This document shows positions 15,001 through 21,000 of a stretch of 64,000 nt of DNA, in pieces; positions within the stretch are counted from its first letter, which is position 1, and each line of letters begins with the position of its first letter. The position numbers were made by a program. The stretch lies in NCBI RefSeq assembly GCF_044647545.1, contig NZ_CP172818.1; one strand, 5' to 3'. Source of the stretch: Escherichia coli. Its GTDB lineage: Bacteria > Pseudomonadota > Gammaproteobacteria > Enterobacterales > Enterobacteriaceae.

Positions 15001-18000
15001 GGGCAACGCGTGTCGTCAATATGTTCAGCAACTAAGCCAGGCATTATGGCTGAGCGGCATCAGCCAGCCGCTTATTCATTACGAGGCCGCTTTCAGCCGC
15101 GCGCAGCAAGCGGCGGAACGCTGCAACTGGCGCTGGGTAAGTGAATCACTACGACAGCTACGGGCAAGCGTTGATGCCTTCCACGCCCGCGCCAGTCACT
15201 ATCATGCCGGAGAATGCTTACGTCAGCTTGCGGCATTAAACAGTCGATTAAATTGCGCACAAGAGATGGCGCGGCGCGACAGTGTTGGTGAAGTTCCTCC
15301 TGTGCCGTGGCGCACGGTCGTTGGCGCTGGCATTGCCGGAGAAGCAAAGCTTGATCATCTGCGGCTGGTGTCTTTAGGTATGCGTTGCTGGCAGGATATT
15401 GAGCAGTATGGTTTACGCATCTGGTTCACCGATCCCGACACCGGCAGTATTTTGCATCTTTCGCGTAGTTGGCCGAGAAGCGAACAGGAAAATTCACCGG
15501 CAGCGACGCGTCGGCTGTTTAGTTTTCTGGCTGGCGCACTGGCAGGTGGGCAAATTGTTTCACAAGCAGCAAAACGCAGTGCCGATGGCGAACTGCTATT
15601 AGCTACCCGCAACCGCTTGAGTAGTGTTGTGCCGCTGTCGCCAGACGCCTGGCAAATGTTGAGCGCGCCATTGCGCCAGCCGGGCATTGTGGCTTTGCGG
15701 GAATATTTACGCCAGCGTCCCCCCGCCTGCATACGGCCTCTTAATCAGGTGGATAACTTATTTATTCTGCCAGTCGCTGAGTGTATTTCACTCGGTTGGG
15801 ATAGCAGCCGCCAGACACTGGATGCGCAGGTAATCAGCGGCGAAGGTGAAGATAACGTGCTGACATTATCCCTACCAGCCTCTGCCTGTTCGCCCTTTGC
15901 TGTTGAACGCATGGCGGCGCTTTTGCAACAAACAGACGACCCCGTGAGTCTGGTTTCTGGCTTTGTCAGCTTTGTAGAGGGGCAATTGACACTGGAACCA
16001 CGGGTGATGATGACAAAAAACCGCGCCTGGGCGCTGGACGCAGAAACTGCGCCTGTGGCACCGCTACCTTCTGCCAGCGTTTTGCCTGTGCCGTCTACCG
16101 CTCATCAGTTGCTGATGCGCTGCCAGGCGTTACTTATTCAACTGCTCCATAACGGCTGGCGCTATCAGGAACAGAGTGCTATTGGTCAGGCAGAGTTGCT
16201 GGCGAATGACCTCACCGCGGTGGGTTTTTATCGGCTGGCACATGTGTTGGCACAATTTCGTAATACAGAAAGCGAGGCACGGGTAGAAGCAATGAATAAC
16301 GGTGTTTTGATTTGCGAACAATTATTCCCCATGCTTCAGCAACAAGGATGAAATAGTGCTTTTTACTAAGAGTTCTACTCCAGTTCCGGACTGCTCACGC
16401 CACAGTATTAGGCATATCCTATATAGCCCCTGGTGAGAGTCACCAGTTCCTTGATTAAATAAAATGGAGTTTTACATGAAGGCTTTCAATAAGCTGTTTT
16501 CCCTTGTTGTTGCATCTGTTCTGGTTTTCTCTCTTGCTGGCTGCGGTGACAAAGAAGAATCAAAGAAATTCAGCGCCAATCTGAACGGCACTGAAATTGC
16601 CATTACCTATGTCTACAAAGGTGACAAGGTGCTTAAGCAATCTTCTGAAACCAAAATTCAATTTGCCTCCATTGGTGCAACCACCAAAGAAGATGCCGCC
16701 AGGACACTTGAGCCGTTAAGCGCCAAATACAAAAACATCGCGGGTGTTGAAGAAAAATTAACCTATACCGATACCTACGCGCAGGAAAACGTGACTATTG
16801 ATATGGAAAAAGTGGATTTTAAAGCCCTGCAGGGTATTTCAGGAATCAACGTTTCTGCTGAAGATGCCAAAAAAGGTATCACTATGGCGCAAATGGAACT
16901 GGTGATGAAAGCCGCTGGTTTTAAAGAAGTGAAATAATCTGTCGGCGGCCATGTTTCGCATGGCCGCCATACCCGTCTTAGCTTTTCTTCACATGCTGGC
17001 GCGCTGCCAGTCCACGCAGAAAATAACGTAAAAATTGATCGCCGCATTCGCGGAAGTTTTTATGATCCGGTGCACGCATCATCGCCGTAATTTCCGGCAT
17101 CGAAACGCGGAACTGCTGTTCGGTGAGGATTGCCAGAATGTCATCGGTTTTAAGCGAAAACGCGATGCGTAATTTTTTCAGCACGATGTTGTTATTAATG
17201 CGACGTTCCGGCTCCAGTGCCGGAGCAGACTCATCCTTGCCGCGTTTTTCATAAATCAGGCCATTGAGGAATGACGACAAAACAATGTCCGGACAACGCT
17301 GAAAACCCTCTTCGTCTTCTTTACGTAGCCAGACGGCGATCTGTTCCGCGGTGGCTTCGACATTACCCAGCGCCAGAATACGCACCAGGTCATTATTATT
17401 GGCTTTCAAAATGTAGCGCACGCTGCGCAGAATATCGTTACTTAGCATGAGGCCTTCAGGTGTTGATGAGGCAAAAAGCCATTTTAGCAGTCTTTTACAG
17501 GCCAATCGCCTCTTTTAAGCTTTTCAGATAACGGCGGCTGACCGGCACGGTTAAGCCATTACGCAAAATCAACTCGGCCTGGCCGTTATCTTCCAGACGA
17601 ATCTCCTGTAAATGCGCGAGGTTAACCAGATACTGACGATGGCAGCGCAGTAATGGTGTACGACTTTCCAGGGTACGTAATGTCAGTTCGGTAAAGCCCT
17701 CTTTCCCTTCGTGACTGGTAACGTAGACACCGCTCATCCGACTGCTGACAAATGCCACATCTTTCATTTGCAGCAAATAAATCCGACTATGCCCCGTACA
17801 AGGGATAAATTTCAGCGCCTGTTGATTTTCCGGTAACAGCGAAACATCCTGCTTGCTGCGCTCCTGACGCAATCGCGCCAGCGTTTTCTCCAGTCGCACT
17901 TCATCAATTGGCTTCAGCAGATAATCAAAGGCATGTTCTTCAAAGGCTTTAATGGCGTATTCGTCAAACGCGGTGAGAAAAACAATATACGGGCGATGTT

Positions 18001-21000
18001 CCGGGTCGAGCATCCCCACCATTTCCAGACCACTGATGCGCGGCATCTGGATATCGAGAAACAGCACATCCGGGCGCAGTTTATGCACCGCGCCGATCCC
18101 TTCTACGGCGTTTGAACACTCTCCAACGATTTCAATATCGCTCTGCTCCTGCAAAAATACGCGCAGGTTCTCCCGTGCTAACGGTTCATCATCGACAATT
18201 AAGACTTTAATCATGCCTCGTCCCTCCATGGTAGTCGTAACGTTATTCGGGTGTAACTATCAGGCTCACAGGCGACGCTTATCCCATAGTCATCGCCAAA
18301 CCGTTCACGTAAACGCTTATCCACCAGATTCATCCCCAGCCCACTGGCATTGGTTACCGGTTGATACAAACCGGCATTGTCTTCGATCTCCAGCATCAAA
18401 TGTTGCCCCTCACGTCGGGCGCTGATTGCCACTCGCCCTGTATCCAGCAGTTGTGATGTCCCATGTTTAATGGCGTTTTCCACTATCGGTTGCAGGGTAA
18501 ACGCGGGCAATTGCTGCTGGGATAATTCTTGCGGAATAGCAATGTTGACCTGCAACCGCGACTGGAAGCGCGCCTTTTCAATTTGCAGATAAGCGTTCAC
18601 ATGTTCAATTTCGTCGGCGAGAGTAACAAACTCCGAAGGCCGCTTTAAGTTTTTGCGGAAAAAAGTGGAAAGATACTGCACCAGCTGGCTGGCCTGTTCG
18701 CTGTCGCGGCGGATCACCGCTTTAATGGTGTTAAGCGCATTAAACAAAAAATGGGGATTCACCTGGGCGTGAAGCAGTTTGATCTCTGACTGGGTGAGCA
18801 TCGCTTTTTGCCGCTCATATTGCCCGGCGAGGATCTGCGCCGAAAGCAGTTGCGCAATCCCCTCGCCCAGCGTGCGGTTGATTGAACTGAATAAACGGTT
18901 TTTGGCTTCATACAATTTGATGGTACCCATCACTCGCTGATTTTCACCACGCAACGGAATGACCAGCGTCGACCCCAGTTTGCATTGCGGATGCAAAGAG
19001 CAACGGTAAGGCACTTCGTTGCCATCAGCGTAGACCACTTCACCGGTTTCAATCGCTTTTAAGGTATAAGTTGAAGAAATCGGTTTGCCGGGTAAATGGT
19101 GGTCGTCACCAATTCCGGTAAAGGCCAGCAATTTCTCTCGATCGGTAATCGCGACTGCACCAATATCCAGCTCCTGATACAGCACCTGTGCCACTTTCAT
19201 GCTGTTCTCTTCGTTAAACCCCTGGCGCAAAATGCCTTCCGTCGAGGCCGCCACTTTCAGCGCAGTGGCAGAAAAAGCCGAAGTGTATTTTTCAAACATC
19301 GCGCGTTTATCGAGCAATATACGCATAAACAGTGCCGCGCCGACGGTATTGGTGACCATCATTGGCGCAGCAATATTACTCACCAGACGCACCGCATCTT
19401 CATAAGGTCGGGCGATCGCCAGGATGATCAACATTTGCACCATTTCAGCGACGAACGTGACGGCACCGGCGGTAATGGGGTTAAAGACTTTATCAGTGCG
19501 CCCGCGACGGATCAGGATGCTGTGTACCAGGCCGCCGAGCAATCCTTCAACGATGGTCGAGATCATGCAACTTAGCGCGGTCATGCCCCCCATCGAATAT
19601 CGATGTAACCCGCCGGTCAGACCAACCAGCCCACCGACGACCGGACCGCCGAGTAAGCCGCCCATTACCGCGCCTATCGCACGGGTATTGGCAATAGAAT
19701 CGTCAATGTGCAACCCAAACCAGGTGCCCATGATGCAGAAGATGGAAAAGACGATGTAGCAGAGAAATTTATGCGGCAGACGAACCGTGACCTGCATTAG
19801 CGGTATGAATAATGGCGTTTTACTCATTAACCACGCAATGACTAAAAAAACGCACATCTGCTGAAGCAGCAGCAACACCAGATTAAAATCGTACATACCC
19901 GCAAACCACACTTCCCTTTAAAACGCGTAACATACATTGCTTGCGTTTAACTTTCTTTGAACTCTTGCAGAAAAATGAGAATTCGTGAGTACGATCACTC
20001 AAAATCGCCTGGCAAAAATAAAATCACCCTATAGATGCACAAAAAACGGGCAAAACTACCTGGTTCGCAAAACTGCGTCTAAAGTTAAACCGGGACCTCG
20101 CGAGCAAGGGTGAGACGATGGCGCTTTACACAATTGGTGAAGTGGCGTTGCTTTGTGATATTAACCCTGTCACGTTACGCGCGTGGCAGAGGCGTTACGG
20201 ATTGCTGAAACCGCAACGGACAGACGGCGGTCATCGGCTGTTCAATGATGCCGATATTGACCGTATCCGCGAGATCAAACGCTGGATCGACAACGGCGTG
20301 CAGGTCAGCAAAGTTAAAATGCTGCTCAGTAATGAAAATGTTGATGTGCAGAACGGCTGGCGCGATCAGCAAGAAACATTACTGACTTACCTGCAAAGCG
20401 GCAATCTGCATAGCCTGCGAACGTGGATCAAAGAGCGCGGTCAGGATTACCCCGCCCAGACACTCACCACGCACCTGTTTATTCCTCTGCGCCGACGACT
20501 TCAGTGCCAACAACCGACTCTCCAGGCGCTGCTGGCGATTCTCGACGGCGTACTGATCAACTACATCGCCATTTGCCTGGCTTCGGCACGTAAAAAACAG
20601 GGTAAAGATGCGCTGGTGGTTGGCTGGAATATTCACGATACCACCCGTCTGTGGCTGGAGGGCTGGATTGCCAGTCAACAAGGATGGCGCATTGATGTCC
20701 TCGCCCACTCGCTCAATCAACTACGCCCTGAACTGTTCGAAGGCCGTACATTGCTGGTGTGGTGCGGTGAAAATCGAACCTCTGCCCAACAGCAGCAACT
20801 CACCAGTTGGCAGGAACAAGGCCATGATATTTTCCCACTCGGCATTTAATGATTCGTTAACAAATGCGCTTTACTGTACAATCCTTTCGTTAACATAAGG
20901 AGTGCATTATGCGCATAGCTAAAATTGGGGTCATCGCCCTGTTCCTGTTTATGGCGTTAGGTGGAATTGGTGGCGTCATGCTCGCAGGTTATACCTTTAT

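Follow-up and report, generated by a model that had tools for sequence, protein, structure and literature searches.

The yehS gene of Escherichia coli lies directly behind btsS and btsR, the genes of a two-component system belonging to the LytS/LytTR type, and the question raised by this locus is whether the small DUF1456 protein YehS is a part of that system or only encoded next to it. We analysed the locus in a stretch of 64,000 nucleotides (nt) from Escherichia coli (assembly GCF_044647545.1, contig NZ_CP172818.1), which is called the window in the following. A preliminary description had proposed that yehS is co-transcribed with btsSR and that its product is an accessory component of the signalling system. 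The evidence presented here points to a different arrangement. The locus probably consists of two adjacent, separable transcription units, of which yehS is transcribed mainly from its own promoter and functions independently of BtsSR. The elements of the locus on which this question depends are as follows:

18211-19896, minus strand: btsS (yehU), LytS-type sensor histidine kinase of 561 amino acids (open reading frame, Pfam, RefSeq)
17495-18214, minus strand: btsR (yehT), LytTR-type response regulator of 239 amino acids (Pfam, RefSeq)
18211-18214, minus strand: ATGA in which the stop codon of btsS and the start codon of btsR overlap, for translational coupling (read from the sequence)
17449-17494, minus strand: btsR-yehS spacer of 46 nt without a terminator (fold z = -0.03, terminator scan)
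17481-17489, minus strand: yehS promoter with the extended -10 element TGCTAAAAT (-10 from Reg-Seq, rapid amplification of cDNA ends (RACE), RpoD systematic evolution of ligands by exponential enrichment (SELEX), conservation)
17453-17457, minus strand: Shine-Dalgarno sequence GAAGG, 4 nt before the yehS ATG (read from the sequence)
16978-17448, minus strand: yehS, basic cytoplasmic protein of 156 amino acids with two DUF1456 repeats, each predicted to form a four-helix lambda-repressor-like domain

The spacer extends from the btsR stop codon TAA (17497-17495) to the yehS ATG at 17448. The distance of 47 nt on the same strand, as given in the preliminary description, is this 46-nt spacer counted to the A of the ATG. 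The coding strand reads TAA-AAGAC-TGCTAAAAT-GGCTTTTTGCC...GAAGG-CCTC-ATG. The element TGCTAAAAT agrees with the sigma-70 extended -10 pattern TGnTAnnnT, which functions without a -35 region, and has a suitable distance to the gene. A scan for consensus promoters with two hexamers did not call the yehS promoter, which was overlooked because it has no -35 region.

Published experiments map a promoter to exactly this position. In the Reg-Seq study yehU, yehT and yehS were handled as three promoters, based on start sites from RACE (PMC7567609). For yehS the study lists a "-10" at +5 to +12 (+17) and RNA polymerase footprints between -25 and +17 in all nine of nine listed growth conditions (PMC7567609). 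These positions are relative to nucleotide 2212241 of MG1655, which corresponds to position 17493 of the window (offset of 2194748 from the K-12 annotation). After conversion, the Reg-Seq -10 covers 17488-17481 and has the sequence GCTAAAAT, which lies exactly within the TGCTAAAAT element; the spacers of K-12 and of the window are identical. Genomic SELEX also identified a binding site of the RpoD holoenzyme in the yehT-yehS spacer that is directed at yehS (PMC3946193). The preliminary description had itself named a separate yehS promoter, together with no effect of yehS on BtsSR signalling, as what would speak against its proposal. Such a promoter was placed in the spacer by RACE, Reg-Seq and RpoD SELEX, and its -10 is conserved.

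We also looked for signals that would separate the transcripts of btsR and yehS. No terminator-like site was found in the spacer by the terminator scan, and the spacer showed no significant fold (z = -0.03). Therefore, read-through from btsSR into yehS is possible. The proposed co-transcription is possible in so far as both genes are on the same strand and the terminator-free spacer permits read-through, but a separate promoter of yehS was mapped and is conserved. When the window was searched with the BtsR target motif, neither yehS nor btsS had a good match in its vicinity, and the number of matches with three mismatches in the whole window, eight, is within chance expectation.

To follow the promoter through other species, we scanned genomes, one per species, with a 15-sequence subset of the YehS alignment, as the alignment of 68 sequences was too diverse for this purpose. 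This resulted in 80 loci. Open reading frames in these loci were called by a gene caller that scores codon usage, btsS and btsR were sought around yehS by tblastn with the E. coli proteins, and gene orders were established by Pfam, NCBIfam and tblastn. Among the 35 loci with btsR directly upstream of yehS (linked loci), 33 have a spacer of 45-55 nt, and the remaining two have one of 102-125 nt. An element of the form TGnTA(A/C)A(A/C)T follows the btsR stop codon in nearly all of them, and the Shine-Dalgarno sequence GAAGG is conserved in most of the linked species. A -10 hexamer was also present upstream of yehS in loci without btsSR, mostly without the upstream TG. Siccibacter has the full element TGGTACACTGCGCGCC at a locus that lacks btsSR, while the -10 of Cedecea and Mixta, TATACTGCCCGC, and that of Pantoea, Erwinia and Winslowiella, TATAATGCGCC(G/A)C, are not preceded by TG.

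A GC-rich discriminator directly after the -10 is a hallmark of stringently controlled promoters of the rRNA type. The combination of TAnAnT with a discriminator containing at least 5 G/C in 7 positions was found 25-50 nt upstream of the yehS ATG in 46 of the 80 loci, compared to 1.3% of random windows from the same loci. Among the 46 are loci without btsSR upstream, for example those of Siccibacter, Cedecea, Mixta, Pantoea and Erwinia. The yehS promoter of Escherichia has kept the -10, and its discriminator is AT-rich. Judged by sequence, the -10 of the yehS promoter is conserved across the Enterobacterales, including genomes that have no btsSR upstream of the gene.

The linkage itself turned out to be restricted. 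The genes btsS and btsR were found immediately upstream of yehS in 35 of the 80 species, all of them core Enterobacteriaceae with YehS proteins of at least 74% identity. In the other 45 loci neither BtsS nor BtsR nor a paralogue was encoded within 7 kb of yehS. The gene orders in the different groups were:

Core Enterobacteriaceae: mlrA, btsS, btsR, yehS, (yehR), metG, apbC
Siccibacter colletis: mlrA and yehS divergent with 151 bp between them and no btsSR, followed by metG
Cedecea: metG, apbC, GNAT gene, yehS
Erwiniaceae: metE, metR, yehS
Pseudomonas: rimO, GNAT gene, gene for an RsuA/RluF-like S4 pseudouridine synthase, DUF1456 gene, trmO, all on one strand

The mlrA/yehS locus of Siccibacter colletis (L011, 6121-7471) is a natural deletion or a pre-insertion state of the locus. 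The species with BtsS-type kinases in Table S1 of Behr et al. 2017 include Cedecea neteri, Enterobacter sp. Ag1, Hafnia alvei, Budvicia aquatica and Siccibacter turicensis; the table has no kinase from Pseudomonas (PMC5552118). In our scan yehS of Cedecea, Enterobacter sp. Ag1, Hafnia and Budvicia was not near any homologue of btsS or btsR (the Hafnia locus here was from H. paralvei). At least 19 Pseudomonas species have YehS proteins with 50-54% identity. The genes are thus unlinked in these genera, which have both, and YehS also occurs where the kinase does not.

In Pseudomonas the DUF1456 gene has other constant neighbours. In 18 of 19 loci the gene directly upstream, in the same orientation, is that of the pseudouridine synthase, and rimO and the GNAT gene are upstream in 17. 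In 16 loci trmO follows within about 7 kb, and in several of them it overlaps the DUF1456 gene by 8 nt. An example of the synthase-DUF1456-trmO cluster is found at 6173-8168 of L075. Nine more distant DUF1456 contexts contained no LytS/LytTR neighbour. Instead, a SWIB-domain gene was located directly upstream in two contexts, ABC-F ATPases were encoded within 4 kb in three, and a class I tRNA synthetase occurred; the neighbours were otherwise unrelated. The SWIB-domain gene is small and on the same strand as the DUF1456 gene in a Nitrospiraceae genome and in the unrelated genome GCA_040961615 (L086, 4594-5471; L088, 4546-5468).

These data can be set against the view of a three-gene operon, btsS-btsR-yehS, in which YehS would modulate signalling by BtsS/BtsR, and perhaps by YpdA/YpdB, in the role of an accessory or connector protein. 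The orientation on the same strand, the 46-nt spacer without a terminator, and the maintenance of the order in 35 core Enterobacteriaceae with mostly 45-55 nt spacers, and also in Salmonella (PMC3875573), would fit this view. It does not agree with the experimentally mapped and conserved yehS promoter, with the BtsS-type kinases of Cedecea, Hafnia and Budvicia, where yehS is unlinked, or with the presence of yehS in Pseudomonas and other phyla without a btsSR-type system. The gene of a dedicated accessory protein should co-occur with its partner system and remain linked to it, and should be expressed from the operon promoter or through the cognate regulator. For yehS we found linkage in only 35 of 80 species, its own promoter and, near yehS, no match to the BtsR-type motif, window-wide counts of which were within chance; read-through is possible. 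In addition, yehS is never mentioned in the open-access papers on BtsSR from 2016-2023 that were retrieved by our literature search, and a search for YehS together with BtsS, YpdB, an accessory role or DUF1456 yielded nothing relevant. We consider an accessory role of YehS unlikely. This part of the preliminary description was not upheld, given the mapped and conserved promoter, the linkage in only 35 of 80 loci and the wide occurrence of DUF1456 without LytS/LytTR neighbours. We infer that the adjacency of btsSR and yehS reflects lineage-specific synteny within the core Enterobacteriaceae and not a functional module.

The arrangement of the genes, as read from the sequence before, was confirmed, and the identities of btsS, btsR and the DUF1456 gene yehS were borne out by Pfam and RefSeq. 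BtsS matched 5TM-5TMR_LYT (6.6e-59), GAF (GAF_2, 1.5e-07), His_kinase (PF06580, 5.9e-27) and HATPase_c (3.2e-06), and BtsR, the gene of which adjoins the kinase gene, matched Response_reg (E = 8.9e-26) and LytTR (E = 7.1e-26). Thus, the kinase as well as the regulator carry the domains of a LytS/LytTR system of the BtsS/BtsR type. YehS contains two DUF1456 stretches (PF07308, E = 1.6e-51), that is, tandem repeats within about 155 amino acids. A longer yehS reading frame with TTG as start codon was rejected, because the family consensus begins at the annotated ATG. The overlap of the kinase and regulator genes by 4 nt (ATGA) was read directly at 18214-18211, and this junction is kept in at least 32 of the 35 other linked species. 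For Salmonella a 4-bp overlap of btsS and btsR was described, and yehS is likewise adjoining there (PMC3875573).

The window is chromosomal, and its btsS and btsR genes share 99-100% identity with those of K-12 and of thousands of E. coli genomes. Several complete genomes carry the 3.1-kb segment with 100% identity, and it was found in 5,425 of 5,426 complete E. coli assemblies, where the arrangement is already annotated. The RefSeq annotation of a 100% identical record agreed with the window coordinates base for base.

Two further promoters from the Reg-Seq data belong to the btsS-btsR unit:

19925-19975, minus strand: btsS promoter region with the RACE start at 19925, an upstream -10 and an FNR-type activator site (Reg-Seq)
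18221-18239, minus strand: weak internal btsR promoter in the 3' end of btsS, with the -10 around TACCAT and the start at 18221 (Reg-Seq)

For btsS the study gives a transcription start site at 2214673, a -10 at -18 to -3 and an FNR-type activator site at -50 to -25 (PMC7567609). The latter corresponds to 19950-19975 of the window (minus strand) and implies oxygen-dependent control of the pyruvate sensor gene btsS. The start site listed for yehT is 2212969, with a -10 at -18 to -7 in several conditions; this promoter was weak and constitutive, without regulator sites (PMC7567609). The start site is located only 7 nt before the btsR ATG. Due to this internal promoter, the regulator may be made partly independently of the kinase.

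We then considered how transcription of yehS may end. The gene faces yehR, and the two stop codons are separated by a gap of 40 nt:

16944-16968, both strands: GC-rich hairpin in the gap between the stop codons of the convergent genes yehS and yehR, stem of 10-11 bp, no U-tracts (folds)
16476-16937, plus strand: yehR, convergent neighbour for a DUF1307 lipoprotein, present in some genera only (Pfam, annotation)

The core stem of this hairpin is perfect, with 16944-16953 paired to 16959-16968. The folds of the two strands had energies of -22.3 and -24.8 kcal/mol (z of -3.9 and -4.3), and none of 200 shuffled sequences folded as well. In another Escherichia genome (locus L003) GGAGGCC...GGCCTCC replaces GGCGGCC...GGCCGCC, which is a compensatory change in the stem. 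The preliminary description regarded this hairpin as a shared bidirectional structure that closes yehS. The stem is indeed real on both strands, with z around -4. A terminator was not supported in the same way: the GC-rich stem-loop of a bidirectional intrinsic terminator is present, but a U-tract directly adjoining the stem on its 3' side is missing on both strands, and the site was not among the calls of the terminator scan. We concluded that the yehS-yehR hairpin of E. coli is a real structure for which the predicted terminator activity is plausible. That it works as a bidirectional intrinsic terminator closing both units is possible, and we lean slightly against it. The strong and significantly stable stem, its distances of 10 nt to the yehS stop and 7 nt to the yehR stop, and its maintenance by the compensatory change argue for this function. 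The missing U-tracts and the result of the scan argue against it, and the hairpin could equally stabilize the 3' end after Rho-dependent termination or processing.

The gene yehR is not present downstream of yehS in many of the linked genera, and metG directly follows there. In the window a long block of genes on one strand (1448-16351, plus strand) lies between metG and yehR. Its members include two DUF4132 genes (one of them yehI), yehK, yehL (ATP-binding), yehM (DUF5682), yehP (VWA) and yehQ (SWIM zinc finger). This block is not found in most other genera, where metG comes directly after yehS, and it looks like an inserted, module-like region. Where yehS is directly convergent on metG (L007, L011 and L033), the position equivalent to the hairpin is occupied by a bidirectional terminator of the canonical type, with runs of A and of T on its flanks.

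The neighbourhood on this side of yehS allows another explanation, namely that the functional partners of yehS are the genes found here, away from btsSR, or else housekeeping genes related to translation. In this view metG/apbC would be its ancestral neighbourhood, and chance insertion or retention would have placed btsSR between mlrA and yehS. The genes metG and apbC are indeed found just beyond yehS in nearly all Enterobacteriaceae, including the btsSR-less loci of Siccibacter and Cedecea, and yehS and metG share the canonical terminator in L007, L033 and L011. However, the two genes are convergent and not co-transcribed, and the neighbours in Erwiniaceae are metE and metR, with unrelated neighbours in other genera. 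The promoter gives a divided picture, as outside Escherichia the GC-rich discriminator resembles that of rRNA promoters, but the Escherichia promoter does not have it. The Pseudomonas gene, which stands among rimO, the pseudouridine synthase gene and trmO, would also fit. Overall, we regard this explanation as improbable, and we prefer the reading of two separable units with a mainly self-promoted yehS.

Papers other than those on BtsSR refer to yehS as a gene of unknown function with mild phenotypes in growth or solvent tolerance (PMC6131188, PMC5311112). The DUF1456 family is large: clustering at 50% identity gave 904 clusters, clustering at 90% gave more than 7,400, and its members reach into Nitrospirae, cyanobacteria and Desulfobacterota. 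An AlphaFold2 model based on 68 diverse sequences had a predicted local distance difference test score of 97.2 and a predicted template modelling score of 0.91. It contains eight helices in two four-helix repeats, with the compact fold of four to five helices that can be superposed on Cro/C1 domains. The model thus shows YehS as two predicted tandem lambda-repressor-like four-helix domains. Sequence comparison did not reveal this relationship: YehS matched only DUF1456 and no helix-turn-helix (HTH) family in Pfam, had no match in NCBIfam, and had no relative in the Protein Data Bank apart from a chance match. The model gave no significant match with Foldseek. A BLAST comparison of one half of YehS with the other was not significant either, and the repeat is visible only via the Pfam profile and the model.

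YehS has an isoelectric point of 9.2. Conserved motifs of the family are KRGK, NN and HKNYRECGDQ, and the residues R69, G70, N86, N87, K92, E119, A122, R125, H129 and C135 are invariant or nearly so. Most sequences also have an aligned cysteine at the corresponding place of repeat 1, [R/E]-C-[P/G]-D. Of 138 family representatives, 19 have a C-terminal tail that is 40 residues or longer. Sixteen of these 19 tails are lysine-rich and of low complexity, with a net charge of +8 to +18, and resemble histone H1-like tails. Fusions were seen in two representatives, P0229 with a DEAD-box helicase and P0182 with a GNAT acetyltransferase; the proteins with tails or fusions further include P0161, P0163, P0238 and P0239.

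The predicted fold, the basic tails, the fusions and the neighbouring genes suggest that YehS binds nucleic acid; it would act in a housekeeping process independent of pyruvate signalling. A link of this process to RNA modification or translation is speculative. As a tentative proposal, DUF1456 may not be a signalling accessory but a widespread nucleic-acid-binding protein in RNA modification, translation or nucleoid biology that is under growth-rate control. Observations compatible with this proposal are the lysine-rich tails, the helicase fusion, the rRNA-like GC-rich discriminator in most Enterobacterales, and the gene neighbours. These neighbours are the pseudouridine synthase gene and trmO in Pseudomonas, and genes for ABC-F ATPases, tRNA synthetases and SWIB-domain proteins elsewhere. 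If nucleic-acid binding were confirmed, a conserved E. coli protein that is still uncharacterised would gain a role, which would be a modest advance.

Taken together, we propose the following model. The first unit is the btsS-btsR operon, encoding the known high-affinity pyruvate-sensing LytS/LytTR system, whose genes are coupled translationally through the ATGA overlap. The second unit, yehS, would be transcribed mainly from its own sigma-70 extended -10 promoter TGCTAAAAT just after the btsR stop and translated from its own Shine-Dalgarno sequence. Some btsSR transcripts probably read through into yehS, because there is no terminator between the units, and the transcripts most likely end or are stabilized at the GC-rich hairpin shared with yehR. 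YehS itself may have a nucleic-acid-binding housekeeping role that is independent of pyruvate signalling. Several observations weigh against this model. Adjacency and a short terminator-free spacer occurred in all 35 core Enterobacteriaceae sampled, which is more than expected by chance and compatible with some shared regulation. The Reg-Seq activity of the yehS promoter was measured on a reporter fragment and not in the chromosome. The neighbourhoods of DUF1456 in distant taxa are heterogeneous, and nucleic-acid binding by YehS is a prediction.

The btsSR-yehS arrangement was known and annotated before, as was the signalling system, which has been characterised well. The useful result is a negative one: close linkage across a short spacer does not turn yehS into a component of the BtsSR system, because the gene is served by a conserved promoter of its own and is distributed far more widely. 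This spares effort on a weakly supported accessory hypothesis and turns attention to the function of DUF1456. Modestly new leads are the fold class of DUF1456, the conserved promoter, the RNA-modification cluster of Pseudomonas, the basic tails and the helicase fusion.

Two RNA elements were also found elsewhere in the window. At 9660-9735 (plus strand) Rfam identified an OrzO-P antitoxin RNA (98.9 bits) of the zor-orz type I toxin-antitoxin locus. It lies in the gap between yehK and yehL, where the matching RefSeq record has no annotated feature. At 30190-30270 (minus strand) a Peptidase-S11 RNA motif (Rfam, 72.8 bits) is located directly upstream of pbpG (29253-30185, minus strand), which is the gene for a D-alanyl-D-alanine endopeptidase.

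Finally, we compared the locus with known systems. The window genes btsS and btsR are the BtsS/BtsR (YehU/YehT) genes of E. coli; they agree in their domains and in the 4-nt overlap, and nothing differs. The identical E. coli proteins are reported to respond to extracellular pyruvate and to activate btsT (yjiY) (PMC5431176, PMC10653868). BtsS/BtsR has the same kinase and regulator architecture as LytS/LytR-lrgAB of Firmicutes and shares the pyruvate theme. The Firmicutes LytS/LytTR systems are reported to control lrgAB, for pyruvate import of the CidA/LrgA type (PMC6790026). In contrast, the target in E. coli is btsT and not lrgAB, and no link between DUF1456 and LytS/LytTR was seen in the contexts examined outside the core Enterobacteriaceae. 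The window also harbors yohJ-yohK (35947-37037, plus strand), encoding proteins of the CidA/LrgA and CidB/LrgB families, at a distance of 16 kb from btsSR; this proximity in E. coli may be a coincidence.

The YehS protein differs from the lambda-repressor-like HTH proteins (Cro/C1, XRE) and the bipartite POU proteins in that its sequence does not match HTH families. In comparison to Cro/C1/XRE, its most conserved residues (KRGK, NN, HKNYRECGDQ) belong to helix 4 and the loop preceding it, and not only to the position of the recognition helix.

Accessory proteins of two-component systems that are encoded in the operon or act as connectors include LiaF, YycH/YycI, PmrD, SafA and MzrA. Like these, yehS is a gene for a small protein beside a kinase/regulator pair and on the same strand. 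Unlike them, yehS has its own conserved promoter without a recognisable BtsR site, as judged by the BtsR target motif. The YehS family, moreover, extends across many phyla without the partner system and is unlinked to it in several genera that have both.

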